A stretch of 64,000 nt of DNA from an uncultured Planctomycetaceae bacterium (GTDB taxonomy: Bacteria; Planctomycetota; Planctomycetia; Pirellulales; PALSA-1355), in assembly GCA_937952415.1 (NCBI GenBank), contig CALFYT010000076.1:5733-69732 (forward strand), read 5' to 3'. This document shows, piece after piece, positions 20,192 to 44,244 of this stretch. The notes under the pieces are model-generated. The model saw only the letters and a program-made list of their open reading frames with translations, was not told the DNA's origin and did no database searches. The position numbers and the translations under genes are program-made. The stretch's first letter is position 1. Every line of letters begins with the position of its first letter.

Positions 20192-23299
<3,108 letters not shown>

Positions 23300-23470
23300 G
23301 ATGAATGCCTGCCAATGTGCGGGGCGGGAGGGGGAGGGGAGGGCCATCCGTTATTATGCGAACGGCCGCGTGCCACATCAAGGCGCGGTCGTCCGCGGCA
23401 TCGCATCGAAACACGCGTGCAACGTGGCGCGCCGCCCGCGACCGAACGACGTGTCGCAGCCGCTTGAGCG

Positions 23471-26400
23471 CTAAGCCGAATCGCGCGGCGGCGTCGGATT
23501 GCGGTTGAAGAGCATGTCGGCCACGACGAAGAAGACCGGCACGATCAACAGTAGCAGCACCGTGCCGACCATCATGCCGCCAATCACGACCGTGCCGAGC
23601 GATTGCCGGCTCGCCGCGCCGGCGCCGCTGGCCGTGACCAGCGGGATGTATCCGACGATGCACGTCAGCGCCGTCATCAAGATGGCTCGCAGCCGCAGTC
23701 GGGCCGCCTCGACGGCTGCCTGCGCGGCAGACTTTCCTTCGTCGCGCAGGTTCTTGGCAAACTCCACCACCAGGATCGCGCTTTTGGCCTGCAAGCCGAC
23801 GAGCATCACCAGGCCGATCTGACCGAACACGTCGAGCGATTTGTTCGTCAGCGTCAGGGCCAGGATGGCACCCAACATCGCCAGCGGCACGGCCAGTAGG
23901 ATGATCATTGGAAGCGACCAACTCTCATACTGCGCGCACAGGAACAGAAACACGCACACGATCGACATCCCAAAAATGTAGATCGTCATGTTGCCGGTCA
24001 ACAACTGCTGGTAGGTCGTGCCGGTCCATTCGTATCCAAAGCCGGTCGGCAGGACCTGATCCGCCACCTGCTCCATCGCGGCGACAGCCTGGCCTGAACT
24101 GTAGCCGGGGGCGGCTTCGCCGACGATCTTGGCCGAGAGATAGAGGTTGTAGTGCGGCACGTCAGAGGGCGCGACGATGTTGCGCACATCGCCCAACGCC
24201 GAAAGCGGAATCATTCGCCCGTCGCTGCTGCGCACCTTCAAAGTCAGAATATCTTCGGGCTTCGTACGGCGCTCGCCCTCGGCTTGCACCATCACCTTGA
24301 AGACCTTGCCGTAAAGATTGAAGTCGTTGACGTAGTAGCCGCCCAGGTTCGTTTGCAGGGTGCTGAACACATCGGCCACCGGGACGTTCAGCGTGCGAGC
24401 CTTGGTGCGGTCCAGATCGTAGTATAAGTGCGGCACATTGGCCGAATACGACGTGAACAATCCGGTCAACTCCGGGCGTTTTCGGGCCTCGGGCAGGAAC
24501 AGGTCGTTGGCCACCAGAGCCAATGTCTTGACGCCCTTGGCCTGGCGATCTTCCAGTTGGAACTCGAATCCGCCGGTTGTTCCCAGACCGGGAATGCTTG
24601 GCGGTTGAGCGACGACGGCCGTCGCCTCACGGATCTCTTTTCGCAGAATTCCGCGCATTTGCGAAACCAGCGCCGGCGCGCGCAAGGTCGCCGCTCGGCG
24701 CTCGCTCCACGGTTCGAGAATGACGAACAGCGTGGCCACGTTCGGCTGATTGACCGCGGTCACGATGTTATATCCGTCGATCAATAACACATTGCGCACG
24801 CCTGGAAGCTTCTCGGCGAACTGCGAGACGCGGCGCGAGATCTTCTGTGTCGGCTCGCGCGTGGTTCCGTCGGGCGCCTGCAGCGAAACGAAGAAGTACC
24901 CCTGGTCCTCGACCGGAATGAACCCCTTGGGCCGCGCGGCGAACAAGTAACCAAGCGGCAAGAGCAGAGCCGCGGCCACCAACGTGGTCACCCACCACCG
25001 GCGCGTCGAGCTGCCCAGCAAGGCCTGATAGGCCGACTCGGCCCGGGATAGGCCCAAATTGAACCAGCGAAACAACACGAAGTTCGATTCGTGGTGCTTT
25101 GCCATCAGAATCCGCGCCAGCGCCGGGCTGAGACTCAGCGCGTTGATCGTCGAGATGATCACCGCAAACACGATCGCCAACGCAAACTGGTTGTACAGTC
25201 GCCCGGTCAGACCTGGAATGAACGCCACCGGCACGAACACGGCGGCCAGCACCAGGCTGGTGGCGATGATCGGGCCGGTCACCTGATCCATTGCGTCGCG
25301 CACCGCTTGGCGGGCACCCTTGCCTTCGCTGAGTTGTCGTTGCACGTTCTCGACGACTACGATCGCATCGTCGACCACGGTGCCGATCGCCAGCACCAGC
25401 CCAAACAGCGTCAGCGTGTTGATCGAGAACCCAAATGCCAGCATGATGGCCAGCGTTCCGATCAGCGAGACGGGGATTGTCACCAGGGGAATCAGGGTCG
25501 GCCGCCAACCCTGCAGGAAGACGAACACGACCAGCACGGCCAGCCCCGAAGCCTGGAGCAGCGTGCTCTGCACCTCGGCGATGTTTTCCGCGACGTAGGC
25601 GGTCGTGTCGTACGCAACGGCGTAGTCGACCCCTTCGGGAAACGCCGTCTTGAGCCGATCCATTTCCTCCCGTACCTGCGCGAGGATTTCCAGCGAGTTG
25701 GCGTCGGACAACTGATACACGCCCACCGTGGCCGCCGGCTTGCCGTCGAGGTACGAACTCATTTCGTAGTTTTCGGTTCCCAGTTCGACCCGGGCCACGT
25801 CGGAAACGCGAACCACGGTCCCGTCGGGCCGGCCGAGTACGACGATGTTTCCGAATTCTTCAACGGTCGCCAGGCGCCCTTTCGCCTGGACGGGGTATTC
25901 GAACTGCTGGCCGGCGGGCACGGGCGCCGCGCCAATCTTTCCGGCGGCGGCCTGCACGTTTTCATTCTTGATCGCATCGATGACGTCGGACGGCGACGTG
26001 CCCTGTTCGGCCATCCGATCCGGATCGAGCCAGATCCGCATCGCGTATTTTCCGCCAAACAGGCTGACATCGCTCACGCCACGGATTCGCTTGAGCGAGT
26101 CCACGACGTTGATCTCGGCGTAGTTGTCCAAGAACGTGCCGTCGTACGTCCCGTCGGGCGAGACGAGCGTCACGGCACAGACCATGTTCGTCGAAGTCTT
26201 CTTGATCTCGACGCCATACTGCTTCACTTCGGCAGGCAGGGTTGGCTTGGCCAGTTCGACCTTGTTTTGTACGTCGACGGCGGCGATGTCCTGCGAGTAG
26301 CCGACGTCGAACGAAACGTTGATCTGCGACACGCCGTAATCGGTGCTACTGGAGGACATGTAGATCATGCCCTTCACTCCGTTGACCTTCTGCTCGATCG

Positions 26401-26596
26401 GCGTGGTGACCGTGTCGGCAACCACTTCGGCCCCGGCACCGGTGTACGTCGTCTTGACCTGCACCTGCGGCGGAACGATGTCGGGATAGAGCGACACCGG
26501 CAAAATGAACGCGCAGATTCCACCGGCCATCACAATCAACAGTGCGATTACCGCGGCGAAGATTGGGCGGTCGATGAAAAAGTGGACCATGAGCAA
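23471..26596 (-). CDS. RND multidrug efflux permease (HAE1/AcrB family)
   Basis: 1041 aa, starting MLMVHFFIDRPIFAAVIALLIVMAGG. 12-TM RND layout with two large periplasmic loops. Confidence 0.95.
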   Translation of the reverse strand: MLMVHFFIDRPIFAAVIALLIVMAGGICAFILPVSLYPDIVPPQVQVKTTYTGAGAEVVADTVTTPIEQKVNGVKGMIYMSSSSTDYGVSQINVSFDVGYSQDIAAVDVQNKVELAKPTLPAEVKQYGVEIKKTSTNMVCAVTLVSPDGTYDGTFLDNYAEINVVDSLKRIRGVSDVSLFGGKYAMRIWLDPDRMAEQGTSPSDVIDAIKNENVQAAAGKIGAAPVPAGQQFEYPVQAKGRLATVEEFGNIVVLGRPDGTVVRVSDVARVELGTENYEMSSYLDGKPAATVGVYQLSDANSLEILAQVREEMDRLKTAFPEGVDYAVAYDTTAYVAENIAEVQSTLLQASGLAVLVVFVFLQGWRPTLIPLVTIPVSLIGTLAIMLAFGFSINTLTLFGLVLAIGTVVDDAIVVVENVQRQLSEGKGARQAVRDAMDQVTGPIIATSLVLAAVFVPVAFIPGLTGRLYNQFALAIVFAVIISTINALSLSPALARILMAKHHESNFVLFRWFNLGLSRAESAYQALLGSSTRRWWVTTLVAAALLLPLGYLFAARPKGFIPVEDQGYFFVSLQAPDGTTREPTQKISRRVSQFAEKLPGVRNVLLIDGYNIVTAVNQPNVATLFVILEPWSERRAATLRAPALVSQMRGILRKEIREATAVVAQPPSIPGLGTTGGFEFQLEDRQAKGVKTLALVANDLFLPEARKRPELTGLFTSYSANVPHLYYDLDRTKARTLNVPVADVFSTLQTNLGGYYVNDFNLYGKVFKVMVQAEGERRTKPEDILTLKVRSSDGRMIPLSALGDVRNIVAPSDVPHYNLYLSAKIVGEAAPGYSSGQAVAAMEQVADQVLPTGFGYEWTGTTYQQLLTGNMTIYIFGMSIVCVFLFLCAQYESWSLPMIILLAVPLAMLGAILALTLTNKSLDVFGQIGLVMLVGLQAKSAILVVEFAKNLRDEGKSAAQAAVEAARLRLRAILMTALTCIVGYIPLVTASGAGAASRQSLGTVVIGGMMVGTVLLLLIVPVFFVVADMLFNRNPTPPRDSA

Positions 26597-26665
26597 CTCT
26601 CGGGAACAACAAGACTCAGAATCTCACGCCGTCAAACGATCGACCGACGGAGCGAGGCACGAATC

Positions 26666-28270
26666 TTACGGGGACCGGCTCGGCGCGGGCTTGGCCGGCG
26701 GCGATGGCTTTTGGGCGGGCGTATCGGAATTCGGTTGTGCCGCGGGCTGGGTCGGATTGGCGCTCGGCGGCGCTGCGCTATTCGGCGGTGTCGCGTCGCT
26801 TGGCGGCTGTTTGAAGTTGGCCGGCGATTGGGCAGCGTCCGGCGGTGCCGCGGCAGCCGATTCGGCCGGCACGTCCGGATCGATCGACTTCGCGACGTCC
26901 GGCAGATTGTCCAATCGAGGCGGCCAGGTTTCGGTTTCAAGCGGTCTGGGCGATACCTTCAGGCCGGAACGCACGAGTTGAAGTCCGTCGACAATGACCT
27001 GATCGCCCGGCTTGAGCGCCCCGGCTTCGAGCACCCGCAACCCGCGATACGTGTCCAACGCCTTGACCGGCACTGCCTTGACCGTATCACCCGCATCGAC
27101 GACCAACACGCTTTGCCCGGCCTGGCCTTCGATCACTGCTCGCTCCGGCACGACGATGGCGTTTTCGTATGTTCCGATGATCAAGTTGACACGGACATAG
27201 TCGCCCGGCAGCAGTTCCTTGTCCGGATTTGGCACGGTGGCCTTGACCAAGAAAGTCGAAGTCGTCGGGTCGATCGTGTTGTCGACGAACGTCAGCGATC
27301 CCAGGTGCGAGTACGGCCGCTCGCCCTGCACGATCAATTCCACCGCTTGTCCCTTGCCGACCAGGTCGCGGACCAGCGGCAAGAATCTGGCGGAGGGCCG
27401 CAAGTTGACCTGAATCGGATCGAGTTGTTCGATGGTCGCCAGGGCCGTGTCTTCGTTGTCGCCGACCAGGTTGCCCTCTTTCACCAGCGCTTCGCCGATG
27501 CGCCCGTCGAACGGAGCCGACATGCGGCAGTAGCTCAACTCGACCTCGGCATCCTTGAGTGCGTTCGAGGCGATTTCATGTTGGGCCTGGGCTTTGAGAA
27601 TATCGGCCTGGTGCATGACCTTGGTTTGTTCGAGCGTGGCTCGCGCCGATTCCAGGTTGGCTTTGGATTGTTCGTACTTGCTGCGTCGCTCGTCGTACTC
27701 CTCGGCGGTAATCGCGCCCGAGTCGTAGGCCTGTTTGCCGCGACGTGCTTCGGCGCTGGCCAGCAAGACTGCGGCTTCTTCTTTCTTCACGGCGGCCGCC
27801 GCCACTTCGACGCTCTTGTCTTGGGTGGCCTGTTGCAGTTGCGCTTTCGCTTCGTCCAGGTTTCCCTTGGCCGCCCCGAACTCCAGCTTAAAGGGCACTT
27901 CGTCGATCACGAACAGCAGCTCACCCTTCTTCACGTCGCTGCCCTGCTTGAACAGTCGCTCCTGCAAAAACCCTTTCACGCGGGCCCGAATCGTGACTTG
28001 CCGGATCGCCTCGGTCGTGCCGTTGCCGGTTACTTCGCGTGGGATGCTTGCCTGATAGGCTTCGGCGACGGTCACGGTCGGCGGGATCGGTTCCACCGGA
28101 GTCTGCGATGGGTTGCAGCCAGCAAGCAGCGTCAGCAACCCGACACATGCCAGCCCCGCCGCGCAATTGCGCGACAGCGCGGGCAGTGCGCACGTGAGAA
28201 CGGAATTGTGCTTCGGGCGGCGCGCGCGCGACCTGGCACGAAATTCATTCGAAACTTGGTTCCAAGCCAT
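26666..28270 (-). CDS. RND periplasmic adaptor (membrane fusion protein) lipoprotein with ~95-aa Pro/Ala-rich C-terminal tail
   Basis: Lipobox LLAGC. Coiled-coil hairpin plus barrel-sandwich blocks (GRIGEALVKEGNLV, VPERAV). The tail is PPDAAQSPANFKQPPSDATPPNSAAPPSANPTQPAAQP... Confidence 0.9.
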   Translation of the reverse strand: MAWNQVSNEFRARSRARRPKHNSVLTCALPALSRNCAAGLACVGLLTLLAGCNPSQTPVEPIPPTVTVAEAYQASIPREVTGNGTTEAIRQVTIRARVKGFLQERLFKQGSDVKKGELLFVIDEVPFKLEFGAAKGNLDEAKAQLQQATQDKSVEVAAAAVKKEEAAVLLASAEARRGKQAYDSGAITAEEYDERRSKYEQSKANLESARATLEQTKVMHQADILKAQAQHEIASNALKDAEVELSYCRMSAPFDGRIGEALVKEGNLVGDNEDTALATIEQLDPIQVNLRPSARFLPLVRDLVGKGQAVELIVQGERPYSHLGSLTFVDNTIDPTTSTFLVKATVPNPDKELLPGDYVRVNLIIGTYENAIVVPERAVIEGQAGQSVLVVDAGDTVKAVPVKALDTYRGLRVLEAGALKPGDQVIVDGLQLVRSGLKVSPRPLETETWPPRLDNLPDVAKSIDPDVPAESAAAAPPDAAQSPANFKQPPSDATPPNSAAPPSANPTQPAAQPNSDTPAQKPSPPAKPAPSRSP

Positions 28271-28503
28271 GAGACGCTCGCGACAACAAGTAATGTCCGC
28301 GACACACGGATCGCCTGCCGGTGCCGGTAGAAACCACGCGGTCGTATTAACCTGCGCTGGCCGCCGAAGTATAGCATTTTTCGACGTGTGCGAGGCGGAG
28401 AAGGGGTGTGCCCGTCAGTATGCCGAAATGGGCGGAGATTCTGGACGGCGCAGGGGGGATTGGCGTACCGCACCGTGCGTGCGCCGCCAGACGCACCGCG
28501 GCG

Positions 28504-29172
28504 CTAGTCCAACTCGGTTTGGATCGCGGCCTCTAGATCTTTGGGGCGGAAGCCGAAGGGACCCTTCGCGCCCTTGAAGGCGATCTTCCCGTCGCGGCCC
28601 ACCAGGTACAACCGGTCGGGCGCCGCGGCGTAATCCTGATTCACTTTGTCATCCAGGTTGTCGATGACGGTCGGAATCGAGATCTCGAGCTTAGCACACA
28701 TCTGCTTGGCGACAGCCGTGCGATCCTTGAAGGTCGTCGGCTGCGCAAATAAGATTTCCTCGCGCTCGTTTTGCCGAACTTGCCAGCCGTCGGTCGGGTG
28801 CGCTTCGCGGATGTAGACCACCAGGAACTCGACGTCCTTGCCGTAGCGACGATACATCGCTTCCAGGGCACCAACCTGGTGCCGGAAGGGCGGTCACGTA
28901 TACGAACCGAAAATCAACGCCACCGGCCGCTTGCCGCGGAAGCGGCTCAGGCGCACCTTCCGCTTGCCATCGAGCGACGACAGTGTGAAGTCCGGCGCCA
29001 GATCGCCGACATTGTATTTTCCGTCGGGCCGCGCGCCGCGACGCAGACCTTTACCCCGCGCGTCCCGATTGGGCGGTTGCGCCACGATGGAATCGGCCAG
29101 CAGGCCCATGCAGATGATCACCGCCAATCCTTGCAAAGCGATCCGCATTTGACGCTCCGTTACAAGTTGCAT
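28504..29172 (-). CDS. Iodothyronine-deiodinase-like thioredoxin-fold selenoprotein (TGA 28894..28896 read as Sec)
   Basis: Two same-frame ORF fragments joined through one TGA. The joined sequence is ...LIFGSYT-U-PPFRHQVGALEAMYRRYGKDVEFLVVYIREAHPTDGWQV... N-terminal signal anchor. Hairpin 6 nt downstream of the UGA. sel genes are present in the window. Confidence 0.8.
28861..28887 (-). promoter_or_regulatory. Putative bacterial SECIS hairpin for the deiodinase-like gene
   Basis: mRNA sense: UGA-CCGCCC-UUCC-GGCACC-[AGGUU]-GGUGCC-CU-GGAA. This is a 6-bp perfect upper stem and a 4-bp lower stem with a 2-nt bulge, and the apical loop contains GGU. Confidence 0.5.
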
Positions 29173-29385
29173 GACACGGGGGACGCTTGCTGTTCGCCAG
29201 TCGTCGTGCGGTCTGCGCCGACTACCCGACCCTACATCATCCGCTCACGCTGGCCGCGTCTCTGTATGATACAGCACAAAATCTTCCAATCCTATGCAAC
29301 CGTCGATTCCGGCCGCGACGTCGCGTAGAATGGCACCACGTGGCCGGATCGAACGCAGTCAGTATCGCGTCGATACACGCCGGCC

Positions 29386-30849
29386 GTGAACACGCCCGCA
29401 AATGCACTCGAGCAATCCATGCCGCGCGCCATCCGACGAACCGTTTCGGCGATCATCGCCGCGCTGTTGGCCACGTGTGCATGCACTACGCTGCCTGCCG
29501 CCGACTATCCGCCGCAAGTCGGACAGCCGCATCCCGACGTGCTGCTGCCAAACATCGAGGACCGTGCACCGGTGGCCTTGTCGCAGTTTCGTGGAAAGAA
29601 ACTGTTGCTGATTCAATTCGCCTCGTGGTGAGCAGGCTGCCGACGGCACGTGCCGGTCTGGCACAAGGCAACCAAAGCGTGGCGCGAGCAGGGCAAGTTG
29701 GCCGTCGTGGGCATTACGCAGGAGCAGCATGCCCAGCGCTGCCGCCTGTTCGCTCAATGGCAGCACATCGACTGGCCGATCCTGCACGACCCGATCAACG
29801 TCACAGGACCCAGCGTGGTCCCGATCGTGATGGCGATCGACGAGCACGGAATCGTCCGCAGCGTGCGACCCAACGTTAGGACGTTCGAGCGTGATTTTCT
29901 CGACCGGACGTTTGAGCCGCCGACGGGCGATTCCGACGCCAAGCCGAATCCACTCGTCGCGCCCGACTTGGCGCATGCGAAATCCGCCGCGGAGCAGTCG
30001 AATACGGCCGCGGCTTGGAAACAGTACGGCGACGAGCTAGTTCTGTGGGGCGGCGACGAACAAATCAACAGCGCGATCGACGCCTATCGCCGCGCGCTGG
30101 CCATCGACCCGGACGACGGCGACGCGCACTTTCGACTTGGCGTTTGTTTCCGTCGCCGCAGCGAAACGTCCCTGCGCGACGACGGCGACTTCCAGCGGGC
30201 CGTCGACGCCTGGGGCCGGGGCCTCGACATCGATCCCAATCACTACATCCGCCGACGCCGCATTCAGCAGTACGGACCGCGGCTGGCCAAACCGTATCCG
30301 TTTTACGATTGGGTGCCGCGCGCCGCGGAAGCCATCCGTGCCCGGGGCGATGTGCCCATTGAGTTGGCGGTGCTTCCGACGGGCGCCGAAATCGCGCATC
30401 CGCAGCGTCGTTTCGTCGAGGCCGAACATAAGGACGCCTCACCGGATCCCGAGGGCCGCATCCATCGCGACGAGAATGAGCTGATCCAAACGGAAGTGGT
30501 CGTGGTTCCGGCGCGCATCAAGCCGGGCGAATCGGCCCGCATCCACGTCACCATGCGTCCCGACGACGGGCGACAGGCCCATTGGAACAACGAGAACGAG
30601 CCGGTCATGCTCTGGGTCGACGTGCCCGACGGATGGCAGACCGATCGCCGGCTGCTGACGGCACCGCTGGGCGACGACCCGGAATCGACCGAAACGCGAT
30701 CGATCGAACTGGAGCTCAAAGCGCCGGACAACGCCCAAGAAACGGTTCGCGTGCCGGCCTACTTGCTGTATTACGTGTGCGAGGGCGTCGACGGAACGTG
30801 TCTCTACCTGCGGCAGGACCTGCCGATCGACATCACACTGGCGCCGTGA
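29386..30849 (+). CDS. TlpA/ResA-like thiol:disulfide oxidoreductase selenoprotein (W-U-A-G-C; TGA 29629..29631 read as Sec) fused to TPR and a C-terminal DsbD-alpha-like domain
   Basis: ORFs 29386..29631 and 29650..30849 share a frame. The joined sequence is ...KKLLLIQFASW-U-AGCRRHVPVWHKATKAWREQGKLAVVGITQE... The start could also be ATG 29419 (MPRAIRR...). Hairpin 6 nt after the UGA. Confidence 0.75.
29638..29663 (+). promoter_or_regulatory. Putative bacterial SECIS hairpin for the TlpA-like gene
   Basis: UGCCGACGGC-[ACGU]-GCCGGUCUGGCA: 10 bp with two single-nt 3' bulges, starting 6 nt after the UGA. Confidence 0.45.
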
Positions 30850-30939: not shown

Positions 30940-33900
30940 TCAACTGTCCGCGGCGAACTTGGGATCATGCACCCCCAGTCGCAGCTTCCATTCCTGAACG
31001 GCGCAGTAGAGCACCGGCACGATCAGCATCGTAATCACTTCGATGAACATGCCGCCGAAACTGGGGATGGCCATGGGCACCATGATATCGCTCCCGCGGC
31101 CGGTTGAGGTCAGCACGGGAATCAAGGCCAAGATTGTCGTGGCGGTCGTCATCAGGCAGGGGCGCACGCGCCGCACGCCGGCTTCCAGGGTGGCTTGTCG
31201 CGCGCTGCGCGCATCGCGAATGTCGTGTTTGGAGAAACTCTGATCCAGGTAGGTGGCAATCACGACGCCGTCATCCGAGGCAATTCCGAACAGGGCAAGA
31301 AAGCCAACCCAAACCGCAACACTCAGGTTGATTGGGTGGATCTGAAACAGCTTCTGCATGCTCGTGCCAAACACGTCGAAGTCCAAGAACCACGGCTGTC
31401 CATACAGCCAGAGCATGATGAAGCCACCGGCCCAGGCGATGGCGATACCGCTGAATACCAGCGAGGTCGTAATCGTCGAGCGGAACTGGAAGTAGAGGAT
31501 GATGAAAATGATGAAAAGTGCCAGCGGCAGCACGACCATCAGCGTCTTGGTGGAGCGGACCTGGTTCTCGTAGTTGCCGGCGAACGTGTAGCTTACGCCG
31601 GGCGGCAAGACAAACTCTCCTTCCTCGCTTTTGCTTTCCAGATACCGCTGGCAGTCTTCCACCACGTTGACTTCCGCGTGGCCAGGCTTCATGTCGAACA
31701 GTACGTACGCGGTCAGGAACGTGTCTTCGCTCTTAACGGCCTGCGGTCCGCGAACGTACTTGATCTCGGCAACTTGACCCAATGGAATGTGTGAACCGTC
31801 CTTCGCCGGCACGAGAATCTTCTTCATCGAGTCGATTTCGTTGCGCAGCTCGCGCATGTAGCGCACGCGCACCGGGAACCGCTCGCGGCCTTCGACTGTG
31901 GTCGTGATCGTGCGGCCACCGATGGCCACTTCGACAACGTCCTGTACCTCGCGAATCGTCAGCCCGTAACGGGCGATCTTCTCTCGATCAAAATCGATCT
32001 CCAGGTAAGGCTTGCCGACGACTCGATCGGCGATCACCGCCGAAGCTTCCACGCTGGGCACTTGCTTAAGCAGCGACTCGATCTCCAGAGCCACTTGTTC
32101 AATCGTTTCCAGGTCCGGGCCTTTGACCTTAACGCCCATCGGGGCGCGCATGCCGGTTTGCAGCATGACGAGGCGCGTTGCGATGGGTTGCAGCTTGGGT
32201 GCCGAGGTCGTGCCGGGCACTTGCGCCGCCTCGGTAATTTCGTGCCAGATGTCGTCCGGGTCTTCGATGCCCGCCCAGGGCTCGCGTCCGCCATTCAGCT
32301 TGGGATCCAACGGCGGGCGCCATTGGCGAAAGGGTATTCCGCCTGGATCTGCAATCAGTTGCCCGGCTTCGTCCCGCGCGAACTTGCCTTCGACACGGTA
32401 CGGCCTTCCGTCCGCGGCCGAAAGCAGGTTCCCGTCTTTGTCTTGAAACCAATCCACTTCGTCTGGGTCATGGCGGAAGTTAACGCGATGCCCGTCTTTG
32501 TCAACGACGTACTCCGATCGGTAGTTGACGACTGTCTCGATCATCGAAACCGGAGCCGGGTCGAGTGGACTTCGCACGCGCCCGATCTTGCCGACAGCCA
32601 ACTCAACTTCCGGGATCGCCATGATGCGGCGGTCTTGCAGCGACAGCACGTCCATGGCCTCGCCGATCGAGGCATGAGGCATCGTCGTGGGCATGTACAA
32701 GTACGAACCTTCGTCGAGTGGCGGCATGAACTCCTTGCCGAATCCTTGCCATGTGGTCGCCAGCGTCCATTTCAGTTTGCCGGCCAGGCCGTCGATCTGA
32801 TCCCACGATTTGCCCCGCCACGCAGCCAGCTCATACTTGAATCGATTCAAGCTGGACAGCTCTGAAACCTCCGCCTCGGAGAGCGACTGGGCGTCGTACT
32901 CCTGCGGGATTCGGCCGAACAGAAACCCGGGGCCCAACCACACGCCGAGTCCCCACAAGAGGATTAACGCGGGCACGCACAGGAACAGCAGCTTGTGATC
33001 CAGGCACCACGCCAGAATCGGCCGGTAAAGAAATCTCTGAAAGACCTGGAAGAAACCGAGCAGGCCGCCGATCAGCGCGGCCACGAACACCAAGTTACGG
33101 AGTAAGCCGCTCGCGGGACCAAGCGGCATCCAGTCTTCCGTCAACAGAATGCCCACCAGTAGCACGGCCGCACCATTGGCCAATACGATTCCGCCCCGAT
33201 GCATGCGCTCGCGCAACGGCTGATACGTTTGCGGTAGCGTCTCTTCAATAAGCTTGTAAGTACCCAGCGCGACGACGATCGCTCCGGCCCACCAGACCAG
33301 ACCATAGCCAATGACCAGTCCGGCTACGATCAGGCCCGCGTAGAAAGTCTGCTTGAGCCGGCGTCGCGTTACTTTTGTAGTGAACAGCAAATGGGCCGCC
33401 GGAGGAATGATTGTCAGTGCCACGATTACCGAGGCCGCGAGGGCAAAAGTCTTCGTGAAAGCCAACGGGCGGAACAACTTGCCCTCGGGGCCAATCATCG
33501 TGAATACCGGCAGGAAGCTGATAATCGTGGTTGAGACGGCCGTTAGCACGGCACTGGCCACTTCGCTCGACGCCCGAAACACGACCTCCAGGCGATTCTC
33601 ATCTGGAGCAGCTTCGTCGAGATGCTTGAGAATGTTTTCACAGAGGATGATGCCCATGTCGACCATCGTGCCGATGGCAATGGCGATGCCCGACAGAGCC
33701 ACAATATTGGCATCGACGCCGAACGATTTCATGGCGATGAAGCACATCAGCACGGCCAACGGCAACAGTGCGCTGATCAATAGAGAGCTGCGCAGGTGCA
33801 TCACCATGACCAAGATGACGATCACGGTGACCAGAATCTCGGCCACCAGTGCCGAGTTCAGCGTGCCGAGCGTCTCGTAGATCAGTCCCGTCCGATCGTA

Positions 33901-35085
33901 GAACGGCACGACGGTGACTTGGCTGATCGTCACCCATTCGGGCCACTCAGCGCGCGGCGTTGCACGCAGGTGCCGAACCCAATCGTCGTGATTGATCTCG
34001 GTGCCAGTGAACGCGTCGAAACCGTTGGCTTCCGCGTAAGCAGCGGCATCTTCGCGAGACGCCTGCCGAAAGTCGACGACGGCTTTGGCCGGCAATCCCG
34101 GCGCGACTTCCTCGATCTTGCTCTTGATGTTCTTGATGGCCGCCAGCGGGTTGTAGCCGTATCGGACGACGGCGACGCCACCAACCGCCTCGGCGCCTCC
34201 TTTGTCGAGCGCGCCCCGTCGCAGTGCCGGGCCGAGCGTGACCTTGGCCACGTCCTTCAGATAGATTGGCACGTTGTCGTTGGTGGCAACGACACTGGTC
34301 TCGATGTCGCTGACGTTCTTGACGAACCCCAGTCCGCGGATGAAGTACTCTGCCTTGTTGATCTCGATGCTGCGGGCCCCCACGTCGATGTTCGACATCT
34401 TCACGGCCATAAAGATGTCGTCGATCATGACCCGCGCGGCCCGCATGGCATCGGGGTCAACGTCGATCTGGTATTCCTGGACAAATCCACCGACCGACGC
34501 GACTTCGCTGATTCCTTCGGCCGACAGCAGGGAGTAGCGGACGTACCAATCTTGAATGGTCCGCAACTCGTCGAGGTCCCACCCACCGGCCGGCTGTCCT
34601 TCGGGATCGCGCCCCTCGAGGGTGTACCAGAAGATCTGGCCAAGCGGTGTCGCGTCGGGGCCGAGCGTCGGGGTCACGCCCTCGGGCAGCGTGCCGCCAG
34701 GCAGGCTGTTGAGCTTCTCGAGCACGCGCGTCCGCGACCAGTAGAACTCGACGTTTTCTTGGAAGATGACATAGATCGTCGAGAACCCGAAGAAGGAATA
34801 GCTGCGAATCGTCTTCACGCCCGGCACGCCGAGCAGCGAGACGGTTAGCGGGTAGGTGATTTGATCCTCGATGTCCTGCGGCGAGCGGCCCATCCACTCG
34901 GTGAACACGATCTGTTGGTTTTCGCCAATGTCGGGAATCGCGTCCGTGGCCACGGGATCGCGCGGCAGTGGGCCGAGATCCCAGTCGAATGGCGCGACCA
35001 TTGCGCCCCAAGCGGTCACCGCGACAACGAACAGCGCGACGACCAGCTTGTTTTCCAAACAGAAACGTATGACCTTGTCGATCAT
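30940..35085 (-). CDS. Heavy-metal efflux RND permease (CusA/CzcA family), unusually long (1381 aa)
   Basis: MIDKVIRFCLENKLVVALFVV start. Conserved HME-RND blocks (GFSTIYVIFQE, GIAIAIGTMVDMGII, DEGSYLYMP). Extra TM pair and periplasmic insert relative to ~1045-aa CusA. Confidence 0.9.
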   Translation of the reverse strand: MIDKVIRFCLENKLVVALFVVAVTAWGAMVAPFDWDLGPLPRDPVATDAIPDIGENQQIVFTEWMGRSPQDIEDQITYPLTVSLLGVPGVKTIRSYSFFGFSTIYVIFQENVEFYWSRTRVLEKLNSLPGGTLPEGVTPTLGPDATPLGQIFWYTLEGRDPEGQPAGGWDLDELRTIQDWYVRYSLLSAEGISEVASVGGFVQEYQIDVDPDAMRAARVMIDDIFMAVKMSNIDVGARSIEINKAEYFIRGLGFVKNVSDIETSVVATNDNVPIYLKDVAKVTLGPALRRGALDKGGAEAVGGVAVVRYGYNPLAAIKNIKSKIEEVAPGLPAKAVVDFRQASREDAAAYAEANGFDAFTGTEINHDDWVRHLRATPRAEWPEWVTISQVTVVPFYDRTGLIYETLGTLNSALVAEILVTVIVILVMVMHLRSSLLISALLPLAVLMCFIAMKSFGVDANIVALSGIAIAIGTMVDMGIILCENILKHLDEAAPDENRLEVVFRASSEVASAVLTAVSTTIISFLPVFTMIGPEGKLFRPLAFTKTFALAASVIVALTIIPPAAHLLFTTKVTRRRLKQTFYAGLIVAGLVIGYGLVWWAGAIVVALGTYKLIEETLPQTYQPLRERMHRGGIVLANGAAVLLVGILLTEDWMPLGPASGLLRNLVFVAALIGGLLGFFQVFQRFLYRPILAWCLDHKLLFLCVPALILLWGLGVWLGPGFLFGRIPQEYDAQSLSEAEVSELSSLNRFKYELAAWRGKSWDQIDGLAGKLKWTLATTWQGFGKEFMPPLDEGSYLYMPTTMPHASIGEAMDVLSLQDRRIMAIPEVELAVGKIGRVRSPLDPAPVSMIETVVNYRSEYVVDKDGHRVNFRHDPDEVDWFQDKDGNLLSAADGRPYRVEGKFARDEAGQLIADPGGIPFRQWRPPLDPKLNGGREPWAGIEDPDDIWHEITEAAQVPGTTSAPKLQPIATRLVMLQTGMRAPMGVKVKGPDLETIEQVALEIESLLKQVPSVEASAVIADRVVGKPYLEIDFDREKIARYGLTIREVQDVVEVAIGGRTITTTVEGRERFPVRVRYMRELRNEIDSMKKILVPAKDGSHIPLGQVAEIKYVRGPQAVKSEDTFLTAYVLFDMKPGHAEVNVVEDCQRYLESKSEEGEFVLPPGVSYTFAGNYENQVRSTKTLMVVLPLALFIIFIILYFQFRSTITTSLVFSGIAIAWAGGFIMLWLYGQPWFLDFDVFGTSMQKLFQIHPINLSVAVWVGFLALFGIASDDGVVIATYLDQSFSKHDIRDARSARQATLEAGVRRVRPCLMTTATTILALIPVLTSTGRGSDIMVPMAIPSFGGMFIEVITMLIVPVLYCAVQEWKLRLGVHDPKFAADS

Positions 35086-35105
35086 CTTGAAACGGCAACG
35101 CGGGT

Positions 35106-37862
35106 TTAGGGATGGCTGTGGTCTGTGTGGGGCTCGGCCTGCGCCGACGGTTTCGATCCGCTGTGCGAAACCTTTTCCACACGGTCAGCACACTTGAGCA
35201 TGGCGGCGCCAAAGTAGGGATTGAGCGTATCGTCGTTGTCCTGATACCAGGTGGCTCCTCGGCCTTGAAAAGCCATCGAACAGTGGAGTTCAAAGATTGG
35301 ACCGGACTGGCCGAAGCCGAACGTCTTGGCCAGGACGCCGATCTCCTGGGATGCGGGATAGAACGTCTCGCGCATCGCCTCGATGCCTTCGGCCTGCTTG
35401 AGGCTGGCAATCAGTTTCTCAAGGTTCGCCTGTTCTTTTTGCCAGGCTTCTTTGGCAGGACCTTCGAGTGCCGTGTCATTAACGGCGTTGAGCGATGCAT
35501 TGAATTGGCCGAGTGAGTCCTGTGCGGATTTAAAGTCGTCCGCGGCCAGCGCCCGCTGAACGTTCAAGTACTGTTTCCATACACCGGCCAATTCACCTTG
35601 GAACTCCGCTGGCGCTTCGATACGTTCGATCTCTAGGTCCTGTTGCTGCATCAAGCCCAGTTGTTCCCGCATGCGGCGGACGTGGCCCTTAAGCGTCAGA
35701 AACGCTCGGTTGGCATCGACCATTTGGTCGGCGTCAGTTCCCTCGACGACATCGTTTCCGAAGAGCATGGCAAACTCCTTCCATAACATGCGCGGATGGC
35801 CGGTGACTTCGGTGTCGTCGACGGCCGCCAATTCCTCGCCGAGCTGCCTGAAAATCGTTGTGACCTGATCCAGGTCCTGGTCTTGCACGGCCGCAGCCAA
35901 CTTGTCGTACGTCGCGGCCAGATCAAGAAGTTGTTGGCGGAAGGCGGGCGGAAGGGCGACTGGGTGTCCGGCGTGCGGATCGTCCGACTTGCCTTCTGCT
36001 AGTTCGCCCTGCCCGCCATGATCGTGGCCACCGCCGCCGCCCCCCTCGGGTGTCATCATGCTGGGTTTGGCTTGAATTTGGATCTCGGAATCCAGCTTGA
36101 AGTTGCCCCGCGTCACCACCATCTCGCCTTCGTGCAATCCGTTGCGAACAAGATAGTATTCGCCGGCGCGTGGTCCCAAGACGATCTCGCGGCCTTCAAA
36201 CGTCGGGTTGTTGGCCGGCGCGAATTGCTCCCGGGCTAAGGTCATCGTTGCTTCGATGTCAGCAAGAACCTCCTTAGCTTGCTCCGCTGACCCGGCCTCG
36301 TAGCCCGCCAAAGCCTTCTCAGCGAGTCGATCGGCATAGTCGTTCCACAGATTTCGCGCGAACGCTGTTCCAGGCTGGTCGTACGGTCGGTCCAACATGT
36401 TGTTGTAGCTGGTAAACGCCTCGCGAATCTTTTCGAGGTCGCCTTCTTGCACAACGGCCGAAAGCGTAAGAAACGCCGGCTCGGCGAAGGAGGGCATGTT
36501 CGGCAACTGCACGTAGACGATCGCACGCGTGCCCGTAACCAACGCGGCCAAATAAGGCACCACCAGCGGAGGCTCTTCCGAGTCGGTCGACGGCGTTACG
36601 TAGCCCAGCGATTCGGCGCGCACCAGCGGCATCCCACAGATGTCGCACTGGCCGGGCTCGTCCTTGACGATCTCCGGGTGCATCGGACTGATCCACTTGC
36701 CCGCCAGGCTGGGATCCATCACTTTCCCGCCCGCGGCCACGACCGGACGCACGACGGCCCGGACAAACATGTCGGGCTTGAGCTTGCCGTCGCCATTCGG
36801 CACGTTGACGCGGACCTTCACCGTGCGCGTCTTATCGTCCAGCACCGGCTGAACGAACGCGATCCGTCCGTGAAACTCATCGCCCGGATAAGCCTCGGTG
36901 GTGATCGTCACGTCCTGGCCGTAGCGAATCCAAGGCAGGTCCGACTCATAGGCATCTAGATGGACCCAAACCTGACTCAGATCGGCGATCGTGTAGATAC
37001 GTTCGCCAAGCGCGACCCGCTCGCCCTGCTGTTTGAGCTTTTCGATCACGATGCCGCCCATCGGGGCATGGATCGTGATGTGATCCGATGGGGCGTCGCG
37101 CTTCTCGATTTCCGCGATTTGTTCTTCCGTCAGCCCCAGCAGCCGCAACTTCTCGCGGGCGGATTCGACGAGATTCACCTTGATGGTTGTCGACTCAGCG
37201 GCCCGACTGCGGTTGAACTTCTCAGCTTGAATCAGTTCCTGCTGCGCCGCGTAGAGCTGCTCGCTGTAGATATCCGCCAGGTGGTCACCCTGCCGGATTT
37301 CCACACCGGTGTAGTCGACATAAAGCCGGTCCAAGCGACCGGAAACCCAGGCCGTGATGTAGCCGAGGCGCGTCTCGTCGTAGTCGACACGGCCAACCAT
37401 CCTCACGTCGCGCGGTACGTAGCGCCGTTCGACCGGCGCGACCTCGATGTTCATCAGCGCCGCCGCCTCGGGGCTGAGGGCAAGCGTGCGCATCCCCCCG
37501 GCGGTTTGTGTTACGGCAATCAAATCCATCCCGCAAATCGGGCAATCGCCCGGCTTGGGCTGCCGGATCTGCGGGTGCATCGAGCACGTCCATGCCGTCG
37601 GGCCCGCGGCCGCGTCTGCGACAGCGTCAGCGTCGCTGCTCTTTTCTTCGGACGCATCGTGCCCGCCCCACAACAACCACGAGATGAACATTGCGGCGGC
37701 AAAGACGAGCGCGAATTGCGCAAGCCGAACGATCCTTGGATGTGCTGCGTAGCGGTTCCTGGTGGCCGTGGCACCGGGCTCGCGCGATGCATGTGTTTCG
37801 GGGTTCATACCAAAAGCTCCCGTCGTCGGCACTGCACGAGTGGGCGCGCACCAACGATTCAC
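35106..37862 (-). CDS. Heavy-metal RND periplasmic adaptor (CusB-like) with two heavy-metal-binding domains, a His/Gly-rich tract and a DUF3347-like C-terminus
   Basis: WTCSMHPQIRQPKPGDCPICGMDL and WISPMHPEIVKDEPGQCDICGMPL motifs. GGGGGHDHGG tract. C-terminal CSMAFQGRGATWYQ...NPYFGAAMLKC. Alternative start ATG 37808. Confidence 0.85.
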   Translation of the reverse strand: MNRWCAPTRAVPTTGAFGMNPETHASREPGATATRNRYAAHPRIVRLAQFALVFAAAMFISWLLWGGHDASEEKSSDADAVADAAAGPTAWTCSMHPQIRQPKPGDCPICGMDLIAVTQTAGGMRTLALSPEAAALMNIEVAPVERRYVPRDVRMVGRVDYDETRLGYITAWVSGRLDRLYVDYTGVEIRQGDHLADIYSEQLYAAQQELIQAEKFNRSRAAESTTIKVNLVESAREKLRLLGLTEEQIAEIEKRDAPSDHITIHAPMGGIVIEKLKQQGERVALGERIYTIADLSQVWVHLDAYESDLPWIRYGQDVTITTEAYPGDEFHGRIAFVQPVLDDKTRTVKVRVNVPNGDGKLKPDMFVRAVVRPVVAAGGKVMDPSLAGKWISPMHPEIVKDEPGQCDICGMPLVRAESLGYVTPSTDSEEPPLVVPYLAALVTGTRAIVYVQLPNMPSFAEPAFLTLSAVVQEGDLEKIREAFTSYNNMLDRPYDQPGTAFARNLWNDYADRLAEKALAGYEAGSAEQAKEVLADIEATMTLAREQFAPANNPTFEGREIVLGPRAGEYYLVRNGLHEGEMVVTRGNFKLDSEIQIQAKPSMMTPEGGGGGGHDHGGQGELAEGKSDDPHAGHPVALPPAFRQQLLDLAATYDKLAAAVQDQDLDQVTTIFRQLGEELAAVDDTEVTGHPRMLWKEFAMLFGNDVVEGTDADQMVDANRAFLTLKGHVRRMREQLGLMQQQDLEIERIEAPAEFQGELAGVWKQYLNVQRALAADDFKSAQDSLGQFNASLNAVNDTALEGPAKEAWQKEQANLEKLIASLKQAEGIEAMRETFYPASQEIGVLAKTFGFGQSGPIFELHCSMAFQGRGATWYQDNDDTLNPYFGAAMLKCADRVEKVSHSGSKPSAQAEPHTDHSHP

Positions 37863-37930
37863 TCAACAAACCAGAAGAAGGACTACGACCGATCAGAAGA
37901 TAGGCGCATACCGGTAGCGCCCCAGTCGCG

Positions 37931-38335
37931 TCAGGCGTCCAGACGGACGTGGCAAGCCTGCAGTGTGCATCCAGCAGGCGAGAGAAGCGTTTCGGACGAA
38001 ATCAGACCGCGGGAGACGGCCGGTCCGTCGCCTTGTCGGTAGGCAATCGCATCGTGCGCAAGCGCGAGCGACAAAGTGTCAATCCGACGGGCGTCGGGTC
38101 CGCCAGCAGGCACGGAGTTTGACTTTGCCGGCGGCGCCTGTTTGCTCACGCAGCAACCGGTGTCGCAGGATTGGCCATCGGCGGGCTTACAACAGCAGTC
38201 CGTCGGCTGCGGCTTCGATGTTTGTCCAAATACGGCGGGCTGCTGGCAGCCAAACGGCGTCAGCCCGAGTCCACCGACGCTGACCACCAGGGCCAAGACC
38301 AGCAGACAACGAAATGTGGGGTGAAGATGCGACAT
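37931..38335 (-). CDS. Small secreted Cys-rich protein, first gene of the heavy-metal RND operon
   Basis: Start MSHLHPTFRCLLVLALVVSVGGLGL (signal). CCCKPADGQSCDTGCCV cluster. Same strand as the adaptor gene, 68 nt upstream of it. Confidence 0.55.
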   Translation of the reverse strand: MSHLHPTFRCLLVLALVVSVGGLGLTPFGCQQPAVFGQTSKPQPTDCCCKPADGQSCDTGCCVSKQAPPAKSNSVPAGGPDARRIDTLSLALAHDAIAYRQGDGPAVSRGLISSETLLSPAGCTLQACHVRLDA

Positions 38336-38481
38336 CAATGCAATTATAGGCAAGTTTTCGAGCGTCGGCGCCTCTACAAACGCGCATCGCTTAACCACAA
38401 TTCTGCCCGAAAATGGCCGATTTGGCCATCGGCGGCCCGCAATGACCGGGCTCCGGACGCCCATCCGATGCATCACCCAAA

Positions 38482-40200
38482 TTGGGGGTAGTGCGGATGG
38501 CTGTGTCGTCCGACGGAGCGTCAGCCTGGCAGACCTTGCGGTTTGTACCGCTTGTGACCGGAGGGACGGGGCAATTGCTCCGCGTCGCCGGCTCGGCTGG
38601 GCATTCCGGCTGCACGTTAGGCCTACGGTGGCCGATACAACCGATAGACTCTGCCCGAGTCACATTTCCCTATTCCGCACTTCGGCTCGCCCTGTCCAGC
38701 TCCCGTCCGGGGGTAGTTCGCTTGATCCGCACGTCGATCGATTCCGATCGGCCGCCGCGATTTGTCGGCTGGCCTGTCTTCGTCCTATGCGCCTTGATGC
38801 TAGGCGCGTTGGCGGGCTGTCGGACCTCGCGCAAAGTGCAGACGCCCGAGTTCGCATCGCTTGCCAGGCTTCCTCTCGTGGCGTCCGTGTCGCCCGCGGC
38901 GGTCGCGCGAGCTGTCGATCCCCAAGTCCCGCAACTGGCCGGGCCGCATCCCGTTGACCAGTACGTTCAGTTCGCTCTGCTCCAGAACCCAGACATCCAA
39001 TCCAAGCGCAACCGGGTGGAAGCAGCCGCGCAGCGAGTTCCCCAAGCCGCGAGCCTGCGCGACCCCACAGCAACTGTCTCTGGCTATCCGTTCTCGTCCT
39101 ATGCGCTGCAGACGGCCAACGGCCGACTAACGGCCAACCTGGCGGCGTCGCAAGAAGTGCCTTGGTTCGGAAAGCTAGAAACACGGGCCCAGGCCGCTGA
39201 AGCAGAAGTCAACGTTGCCCGAGCTGAGTTGGCCGCCACGGAACTTGAAGTGATCGAGCAGGTGAAGCGGGCCTACTACGAGCTGCACTTTGTCGAGAAA
39301 TCGATCGCGATCACGGCGGAAAGCCGCAGACTGGCAGTCGATCTGAGTCGAATCGCCGAAGCACGGTTCAAAGCCGCCCAGGTCAGCCAACAGGACTATC
39401 TGCGGGCGGAAGTAACCGTCTACAACGTCGATGCCGAGCTGATTCGCCTGCGCGAGGAGTTGCAATTGGCCCAGGCACGTCTGGCAAGACTCCTGCACAT
39501 CTCGCCCGACACGCCGCTGCGAACCCTGCCGGAGCTCGCCGATGAGGAATTGCCAACCGACTTGCAGCGACTCTACGAGCGCGCGATCGCCGCGCGGCCC
39601 GAACTACACGCGCAGCTTGCCGCTATTCAGCGCGATCGGCATGCGGTGCGACTTGCGCAGCTCCAATACTTTCCCGATGTAACGTTCAGTGGCAGTTGGG
39701 GAGCCGTAACCACCAACCGCGCAGTGGCGTTGGCGGCCGACGGCCGCGATTTCGCTCAGTTCGGCATCATGGCCAACATTCCGATCTATCGGAAGCGGCT
39801 TCAAGCCGGCGTGCGCGAGGCCGAGTCGAAGACAGTCGCCAGCGCCCGCCAGTACGATTCGCTCCGCGACAAGACCCAGCAGGAAGTCAAGGATCTGTTC
39901 GTCGAGATCAATGCGCAAAGAGATCTGTTACGCGTCTTCGACACACAAATCGTCCCGGTGGCCGAACAAACGTTGCGTGTTTCAATTCCGGCCTACGAGT
40001 CCGGCCAGACCGACGTCCTGCAGCTCTTGGACAACTGGCGCGACGTGCTGCGATTTCAGATCATGCAACAGCGGCTCGAAGCCCAAGTCCGCCAGTCGCT
40101 GGCCTCGTTGGATCGAGTGATCGGTACATTCACAGTATCTGACCCAACCACGAGGCGTCTGCCCGAAACCATTCCCCCGCCCGAGGGTTCAACGCCATGA
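38482..40200 (+). CDS. TolC-like outer-membrane efflux protein (OMF) lipoprotein
   Basis: Two OEP-type repeats with coiled coils. Lipobox LGALAGC. The true start is probably internal (e.g. TTG 38722), because the first ~80 codons of the ORF lack a leader-like sequence. Confidence 0.85.
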   Translation: MGVVRMAVSSDGASAWQTLRFVPLVTGGTGQLLRVAGSAGHSGCTLGLRWPIQPIDSARVTFPYSALRLALSSSRPGVVRLIRTSIDSDRPPRFVGWPVFVLCALMLGALAGCRTSRKVQTPEFASLARLPLVASVSPAAVARAVDPQVPQLAGPHPVDQYVQFALLQNPDIQSKRNRVEAAAQRVPQAASLRDPTATVSGYPFSSYALQTANGRLTANLAASQEVPWFGKLETRAQAAEAEVNVARAELAATELEVIEQVKRAYYELHFVEKSIAITAESRRLAVDLSRIAEARFKAAQVSQQDYLRAEVTVYNVDAELIRLREELQLAQARLARLLHISPDTPLRTLPELADEELPTDLQRLYERAIAARPELHAQLAAIQRDRHAVRLAQLQYFPDVTFSGSWGAVTTNRAVALAADGRDFAQFGIMANIPIYRKRLQAGVREAESKTVASARQYDSLRDKTQQEVKDLFVEINAQRDLLRVFDTQIVPVAEQTLRVSIPAYESGQTDVLQLLDNWRDVLRFQIMQQRLEAQVRQSLASLDRVIGTFTVSDPTTRRLPETIPPPEGSTP

Positions 40201-40481: not shown

Positions 40482-40512
40482 TCGCAGGCGCGACACGTCT
40501 CAGATTCACAAG

Positions 40513-40609
40513 CGGGAGTGGATGGGAATCGAACCCACCTGAAATCTGTTTGACGGATTTCACAACGGGTTTGAAGCCCGCGGCCGCCACCAGGCGTGCT
40601 GACACTCCC
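40513..40609 (-). tRNA. selC: tRNA-Sec (anticodon UCA)
   Basis: 97 nt: GGGAGTG...CACTCCC-G acceptor. Anticodon loop CTTCAAA on a GCGGG/CCCGT stem. 7-bp long variable arm TGAAATC/GATTTCA. T-loop TTCGATT. Acceptor + T helices sum to 13 bp. No encoded CCA. Lies 86 nt downstream of selA. Confidence 0.85.
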
Positions 40610-44145: not shown

Positions 44146-44244
44146 TGTAGCAGCCGTGACGCGCCGCGGGCCGAACCTCCGTGCGTGGAACCGGCCCGCG
44201 CCCGTCGATACAATGGCGCGCTCTTGGTCCTCGATTCGCCCGAC

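Follow-up and report, generated by a model that had tools for sequence, protein, structure and literature searches.

A deiodinase-like gene interrupted by a probable selenocysteine codon in an uncultured planctomycete

A reading frame divided by one UGA codon

The DNA analysed here, referred to below as the window, is a 64,000 nt stretch of contig CALFYT010000076.1 from an uncultured Planctomycetaceae bacterium. On its minus strand, at 28504..29172, lies what appears to be a complete coding sequence (CDS) for a deiodinase-like selenoprotein, a single frame with one internal TGA. Two open reading frames (ORFs), one at 29172..28894 encoding 92 aa and ending in RPVALIFGSYT, the other at 28857..28504 encoding 117 aa, share this frame and are separated by one TGA (28896..28894) and 12 sense codons (PPFRHQVGALEA); the original prediction had described this arrangement correctly, in both its coordinates and its peptide. 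Reading through the TGA gives a product of 222 aa, from an ATG at 29172 to a TAG at 28506..28504, the core of which is RPVALIFGSYT-U-PPFRHQVGALEAMYRRYGKDVEFLVVYIREAHPTDGWQV, where U denotes selenocysteine (Sec). Public gene calls divide the gene into pieces of 84 and 117 aa, the fragmentation that had been expected of automatic annotation. The identical sequence is found in at least three independent assemblies, which argues against the TGA being a sequencing error, the possibility that resequencing had been proposed to address.

The N-terminal piece of the public annotation begins at a second ATG, 29148, which is the more likely start and gives a protein of 214 aa. This start is preferred because a GGAG lies 6 nt 5' of it, because the 84-aa call begins there and because tblastn alignments to relatives start at query residue 9, which corresponds to the same ATG. 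Residue numbers throughout are nevertheless those of the 222-aa version that begins at ATG 29172. Residues 9-31 (29080..29148, minus strand) form a hydrophobic segment, MRIALQGLAVIICMGLLADSIVA, which is followed by QPP; read directly from the translation, it resembles a signal peptide or signal anchor. A similar hydrophobic segment is present at the N-termini of many homologues and absent from others. With such a signal at its N-terminus, the catalytic domain would probably lie outside the cytoplasmic membrane, on the periplasmic side.

The interrupting codon, at 28894..28896 on the minus strand, corresponds to residue 93 and, in alignments with mouse Dio3 and Dio2, two of the vertebrate iodothyronine deiodinases (Dio), falls at their catalytic Sec. 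Of 85 related loci, 84 have TGA in the identical column; the loci were fetched from genomes and metagenomes and include the best-scoring metagenomic relatives returned by a scan, nearly all of them Sec forms. The closest genomic relatives are metagenome-assembled genomes (MAGs) of Planctomycetia and Pirellulales. Rather than ending uniformly at GSYT, the homologues remain similar across the TGA without interruption, with query residues 9-221 aligning at 65-67% identity to two planctomycete MAGs. Amongst the best 120 database homologues, the column is occupied by Cys in 82, by 'W' in 15, by 'G' in one and by Ser in one (P0044), whilst the other 21 are C-terminal fragments starting just past it. 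The expectation that relatives would carry Cys or Sec at this position is therefore borne out by both the proteins and the loci.

The 'W' of homologue P0001 is a TGA in the DNA (locus L001), and the 'W' and 'G' entries as a group (P0001, P0003-P0006, P0008, P0009, P0011, P0042, P0069, P0074, P0091, P0106, P0109, P0113 and P0119) have the look of Sec genes to which pipelines applied genetic code 4 or 25, placing false Trp and Gly residues in the protein databases. Two of the related loci are unusual in other respects. Locus L040 has, at about 1654..1700, an in-frame TAG five codons beyond the Sec TGA (PPFRR*AGAL), in the SECIS loop region (CGCUAGGCU), a feature that could mark a pseudogene or stem from faulty assembly. 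The metagenomic contig L073 carries tandem deiodinase-like Sec genes, with TGA codons at 930 and 1612 on the plus strand, each with a hairpin.

A SECIS-type hairpin and the decoding machinery

Downstream of the UGA, at 28861..28887 on the minus strand, lies a candidate selenocysteine insertion sequence (SECIS), identified by the fold of its core and by covariation in relatives. The mRNA can form the hairpin UUCC-GGCACC-AGGUU-GGUGCC-CU-GGAA, the first nucleotide of which is 6 nt past the UGA; both this sequence and its spacing had been given correctly in the original prediction. It consists of a lower stem (UUCC/GGAA), a CU bulge, an upper stem beginning 10 nt past the UGA (GGCACC(A)/(U)GGUGCC) and an apical loop of GGU (AGGUU). 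An apical loop that is small and includes a G is a feature of bacterial SECIS elements (PMC1088965). Folded alone, the core hairpin has an energy of -13.9 kcal/mol (z = -2.36), equalled by five of 200 shuffled sequences.

The hairpin is found at a fixed register after the TGA in the related loci, with stem sequences that differ: where the window has GGCACC/GGUGCC, the upper stems of relatives include GUGCCC/GGGCAC, GGCGGG/CCCGCC and GAUCCC/GGGAUC, amongst others. In an ungapped alignment of 80 distinct TGA-form sequences, the positions of an 11-pair structure could pair in 77.4% of cases, compared with 65.5% in shuffles, and three stem pairs showed between 24 and 30 double-sided changes. Covariation was 0.325, against 0.146 in shuffled alignments, none of 500 of which reached the observed value, and controls in which the pairing partners were slid gave at most 0.163. 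Of these 80 sequences, 54 have an apical loop of AGGCU or AGGUU. A Cys-form control, of five sequences only, kept between three and eight of the 11 pairs (two of the five keep eight), whereas the TGA forms keep a mean of 8.5.

The machinery for Sec insertion is encoded in the same window, in a cluster that begins 11.3 kb from the deiodinase-like gene, in agreement with the 11 kb originally noted for tRNA-Sec, selA, selB and selD, all four of which were located. The tRNA-Sec (anticodon UCA; 40512..40609, minus strand) was found by ARAGORN and matches Rfam RF01852 at 67.4 bits (cut-off 47). On the same strand, selA, encoding L-seryl-tRNA(Sec) selenium transferase, lies at 40696..42156 (TIGR00474, E 5.5e-164, 546 bits, cut-off 268), and selB, encoding the Sec-specific elongation factor that binds SECIS elements, at 42193..44145 (TIGR00475, E 1.9e-107, 360 bits, cut-off 242). 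The selenophosphate synthetase gene selD, of the Cys type (QCAGCGGK), occupies 45391..46461 on the plus strand, its start being uncertain between 45361 and 45391; a sequence of E. coli SelD, used as a tblastn query, matched it with E 1.3e-40 and 34% identity over 309 aa. It is separated by about 1.2 kb from the tRNA-Sec, selA and selB cluster and lies on the opposite strand, and an 847-aa ORF at 43918..46461 (plus strand) consists of selD plus a spurious stretch added upstream, which overlaps selB.

TGA is used as an ordinary stop codon in the window. It terminates five of the ten Pfam-supported genes, namely selA, selD and those for the TolC-like, CusA-like and beta-lactamase-type proteins, is internal to none of the ten, and the Trp codon is TGG. 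Since TGA ends half of these genes without occurring inside any, a reassigned genetic code is excluded.

Family, fold and conserved residues

With U written as C, the joined protein matches PF00837 (T4_deiodinase) at 119.9 bits (cut-off 27, E 1.4e-34) over profile positions 73-232 of 237, so that the profile search suggested at the outset gives a clear assignment. Weaker matches, at around 40 bits each, were found to AhpC-TSA (PF00578; E 4e-10, 40.1 bits, cut-off 26) and Redoxin (E 7e-10). The NCBIfam model NF038285, 'deiodinase family protein', scores 233.3 bits, below its cut-off of 250, over profile positions 177-340 of 347. This model describes a longer protein, the N-terminal part of which has no counterpart in the window protein, and it is the C-terminal 164 positions that match; the sub-threshold score hence shows a shorter architecture with the same catalytic domain. 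Long members of 350-900 aa also occur (P0052, P0058, P0071 and many others), some of them with an N-terminal EF-hand and some with two deiodinase-like stretches. The deiodinase-like domain thus occurs in several architectures, one of which NF038285 probably models. At E<=1e-30 the family comprises 859 representatives of 50%-identity clusters.

A phmmer search against PDB sequences had as its top matches the catalytic domains of two mouse enzymes, Dio3 (4tr3, E 5.9e-24) and Dio2 (9h48, E 1.3e-22). In both, the TGA column corresponds to the active-site residue of the motif FGSCT-C-PPF, which is Cys in the crystal constructs; the deiodinase signature FGSxT-U-PxF, with its U at the catalytic position, had therefore been recognised correctly. 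An AlphaFold2 model of P0002, a Cys homologue with 60% identity, has a predicted local distance difference test (pLDDT) score of 88.8, and its best PDB matches are again Dio3 (template modelling (TM) score 0.78) and Dio2 (TM 0.81), followed by ResA/TlpA-type proteins and Bcp.

Residue conservation was assessed in 186 family members, comprising 99 Sec forms and 87 Cys forms. Nearly invariant are Ser90, Thr92, U/C93, Pro94, Pro95, Phe96, Tyr120, Glu123, His125 and Trp130, along with Arg151, Asp171, Pro185, Arg187, Gly204 and Pro205. Four of these fall at the start of the deiodinase-specific insertion, YIREAHPTDGW (28783..28815, minus strand), which contains Tyr120, Glu123, His125 and Trp130. It aligns with YIEEAHPSDGW of Dio3, the EAH--DGW block that had been picked out from the translation, and the insertion as a whole (YIREAHPTDGW...KDR) aligns without loss to both Dio3 and Dio2. 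Its Tyr, Glu and His are conserved in at least 98 of the 99 Sec forms and in 86-87 of the 87 Cys forms, and its Trp in 89 and 82 respectively. In Dio2 and Dio3, the equivalent Ser, Thr, Tyr, Glu and His belong to a proposed proton relay, and a His/Trp pair shapes the substrate loop (PMC11592359). Of this relay, which in Dio3 numbering runs Ser167-Thr169-Tyr197-Glu200-His202-His219, five of six residues are kept here (S90, T92, Y120, E123 and H125).

Only one other Cys is conserved in the family. It occupies one of two adjacent columns, 158 or 159, in 94 of the 99 Sec forms and 85 of the 87 Cys forms (179/186, 96%), and in the window protein it is Cys159 (28696..28698, minus strand), in the helix after the insertion; its equivalent in the P0002 model falls within the helix formed by residues 146-159. 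Its exact position varies by group, with C158 in most Sec forms, M158-C159 in the window protein and its closest relatives, and A158-C159 in most Cys forms. Its conservation suggests that Cys159 is probably the resolving residue.

The likeness to vertebrate Dio1-3 (4TR3, 9H48) thus extends to the thioredoxin/peroxiredoxin fold with its Dio insertion, the FGSxT-U-PPF motif with a Sec nucleophile, the Ser, Thr, Tyr, Glu, His and Trp residues, the RLY strand, the GP turn and an N-terminal hydrophobic or membrane segment. However, the SECIS element of the window gene is of the bacterial type and lies within the coding region, whereas that of the Dio genes is in the 3' untranslated region; the window family retains the Cys at 158/159 in the preceding helix; and the window protein probably faces the periplasm of an organism in which thyroid hormone is not expected.

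In their Sargasso Sea study, Zhang, Fomenko & Gladyshev (2005; PMC1088965) described bacterial 'deiodinase-like proteins', four sequences with Sec and six with Cys, together with bacterial SECIS elements, and proposed a redox function without specifying it. The family is listed, with the motif UxxC, in prokaryotic selenoproteome reviews of 2022 and 2026 (PMC9312934, PMC13188914), and selenoproteins have been documented in planctomycetes (PMC4807772). The window gene shares with these proteins the PF00837 domain, the Sec/Cys active-site column, and a SECIS directly after the UGA with a G in its small loop. Unlike the UxxC of the reviews, its active-site motif is U-P-P-F, and position +3 after the U is Phe, rather than Cys, in 97 of the 99 Sec forms. 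The gene is a further member of this described family, from which it differs in nothing essential. Its presentation as a missed selenoprotein hence holds for the gene, which public calls split, but not for the family, which has been known since 2005 and is covered by the reviews and by NF038285.

Neighbouring genes and proposed chemistry

The deiodinase-like gene is placed between an efflux pair downstream on the same strand, consisting of AcrB (23471..26596) and HlyD-type (26666..28270) genes, and a gene transcribed divergently from it (29386..30849, plus strand). The AcrB/HlyD linkage is not kept in relatives. The divergent gene appears to encode a second selenoprotein: a TGA at 29629..29631, in the context LLLIQFASW-U-AGCRRH, interrupts a frame that when joined specifies 487 aa, with an N-terminal hydrophobic segment, a thioredoxin-like/AhpC-TSA domain containing UxxC, and then TPR repeats. 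This TGA is kept in L001, L003 and L042, and public calls again give two fragments, of 70 and 399 aa. A small hairpin follows the UGA (GGC-ACGU-GCC within a longer stem), with an energy no better than that of shuffled sequences. The pairing of a deiodinase-like gene with a thioredoxin-UxxC-TPR gene was found in the four closest loci only (L001, L002, L003 and L042). Clustering of flanking ORFs from 88 loci yielded mostly shadow ORFs over the gene itself, and the sole recurring neighbour was this thioredoxin-UxxC-TPR gene. When the window was scanned crudely for further frames broken by a TGA near a Cys, the divergent neighbour was the only credible candidate, and a promoter and terminator scan of 28200..29500 returned nothing informative.

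Between these two genes and the sel cluster lies a Cus-like heavy-metal efflux set (30940..40200). It includes, on the minus strand, genes for an ACR_tran protein of 1381 aa (30940..35085) and a membrane-fusion protein of 918 aa with HMBD heavy-metal-binding repeats and DUF3347 (35106..37862), and, on the plus strand, a gene for the TolC-like protein (38482..40200). A 1079-aa ORF at 25091..28330 (plus strand), antisense to the AcrB and HlyD-type genes, encodes an Arg/Gly/His-rich, low complexity sequence and is almost certainly a shadow ORF of DNA with 62.5% GC. A protein with PSCyt1, PSCyt2 and PSD1 domains, typical of planctomycetes, is encoded at 20192..23347.

Taken together, the data make it very probable that 28504..29172 is one intact selenoprotein gene of the bacterial deiodinase-like family, from a Pirellulales-type planctomycete, with Sec recoding at the UGA; this judgement concerns gene identity and recoding, and does not extend to the substrate. 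Several points weigh against it, or against a substrate resembling that of the deiodinases. The single-sequence hairpin only modestly betters its shuffles, and its 61-nt context does not fold significantly well (z = -1.54), so support for a SECIS element rests on the comparison with relatives and on the core hairpin; the fold suggested as a check hence held for the core but not for the longer stretch. At the gathering threshold, Rfam matched no SECIS family, returning only tRNA-Sec. The structural model is that of homologue P0002 rather than of the window protein. His219 of Dio3 is replaced by Pro145, with Pro in 93 of the 99 Sec forms; the clamp residue Arg275 of Dio3 (Lys241 in Dio2) is Lys203 in the window protein, most members having Pro there; and where Dio has its proximal and distal Cys (168 and 239), the window protein has Tyr and Ile. 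The neighbourhood gives no functional hint beyond the close relatives, and the contexts of four Cys forms have nothing in common. Finally, both Sec insertion and activity are read from sequence analysis, up to the limit of which we regard Sec decoding as established.

By analogy with the established bacterial mechanism, the hairpin at 28887..28861 would recruit SelB carrying Sec-tRNA(Sec), so that the UGA at 28896..28894 would be read as Sec93. The resulting protein would have a thioredoxin/peroxiredoxin fold bearing the deiodinase-specific insertion, behind an N-terminal signal peptide or anchor. Its Sec93 selenolate, positioned by Ser90 and Thr92 and aided by a Tyr120-Glu123-His125 network, could attack a small substrate at an electrophilic atom; Cys159 would then capture the oxidised selenium as a selenenylsulfide, and an external thiol-disulfide reductant, possibly the neighbouring UxxC protein, would regenerate the enzyme. 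We infer such a cycle, of the deiodinase/peroxiredoxin type, from its parallel with that of Dio, which proceeds via a selenenylsulfide and a proton relay (PMC11592359).

Searching the literature for a bacterial deiodinase homologue that had been characterised by experiment brought up no paper with an activity. We lean tentatively, at a little under even probability, towards reductive removal of halogen from a halogenated phenolic or aromatic compound, because the deiodinase-specific insertion is strictly conserved. Hydroperoxide reduction and some other thiol-disulfide role are each possible, although on present evidence rather doubtful, and iodothyronines are very unlikely substrates.

The best of the competing readings, which we nonetheless consider somewhat unlikely, accepts the same recoded gene but makes its product a peroxiredoxin-like peroxidase, in which Sec93 would reduce H2O2 or an organic hydroperoxide, forming a selenenic acid that Cys159 would resolve. 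The secondary AhpC-TSA and Redoxin matches favour it, as does the presence of Bcp and Tpx structures amongst the fold matches. The window protein has the same fold as the AhpC-TSA/Redoxin families and the atypical 2-Cys peroxiredoxins (Bcp/PrxQ, Tpx), and like them it carries its catalytic residue at the N-terminal end of helix 1, a conserved Arg before a beta strand and a single distant Cys of the resolving type; it also has Ser at -3 from Sec. The invariant Arg187, just before the RLYL strand, is placed as in the catalytic arrangement of Thr/Ser and Arg that is general to peroxiredoxins. The 'redox function' suggested by Zhang et al. (2005; PMC1088965) would also fit. However, the PF00837 score is three times that of the peroxiredoxin families, the strictly conserved insertion is not present in peroxiredoxins, and the PxxxT/SxxC context is matched only in part, the peroxiredoxin Pro at -7 from the catalytic residue being Leu here.

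It is improbable that the protein is a ResA/TlpA-type extracytoplasmic thiol-disulfide oxidoreductase with protein disulfides as its substrate. Second to the deiodinases in sequence and fold come ResA, TlpA-like and Etrx proteins, there is an N-terminal export signal, and the divergent neighbour encodes an exported thioredoxin-like UxxC protein; yet the window protein itself has neither CxxC nor UxxC, the +3 position being the conserved Phe, and its partner Cys is 65-66 residues distant. Far less likely still is a true iodothyronine deiodinase acting on compounds resembling thyroid hormones: although the active-site motif and the insertion are common to Dio1-3, neither the proposed thyronine-holding residues (Arg275, Phe258 and the Asp211 region) nor His219 is conserved, the organism is a free-living planctomycete from groundwater- and soil-type metagenomes, and Zhang et al. 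judged thyroid hormones an unlikely substrate (PMC1088965). That the TGA is a real stop, whether in a pseudogene, between two small genes or through sequencing error, or is read as Trp or Gly, can be given almost no credence in spite of the two-fragment gene calls and the W and G database entries, given that TGA recurs in 84/85 independent loci, where the protein is conserved to either side of it and the hairpin covaries, that it is present in independent assemblies and beneath the 'W' of P0001, and that it serves as an ordinary stop; the pseudogene and alternative-code readings are ruled out by this recurrence and this usage.

To return to the favoured reading of a recoded deiodinase-like enzyme, a more speculative extension, which we consider improbable, is that the protein forms a dedicated extracytoplasmic selenoprotein pair with the exported W-U-A-G-C/TPR protein encoded next to it. 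In this pair the UxxC protein would return the Sec93-Cys159 selenenylsulfide to its reduced state, and the deiodinase-like enzyme would reductively dehalogenate natural organohalogens such as bromo- and iodophenols or halotyrosines. If true, this would represent an ancestral, non-hormonal deiodinase activity.

The locus opens no new kind of system, being an ordinary example of a described family; the additions made here are the U-P-P-F motif, the conservation of Cys at 158/159, the replacement of His219 by Pro, the size of the family, and the near-total share of Sec forms amongst the best-scoring metagenomic relatives returned by the scan. For annotation, a real gene has been split at its Sec codon and stored as fragments, and merits re-annotation as one selenoprotein, whilst correction of the false Trp and Gly residues at the Sec position of relatives in the databases would be useful. 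The family is a large one (859 clusters), nearly always a selenoprotein in the closest metagenomic relatives, and is without a known substrate 20 years on from its description. Its residue pattern, in which the deiodinase core is kept, His219 and the thyronine clamp are lost and a putative resolving Cys is conserved, provides a concrete basis for mutagenesis and assays.

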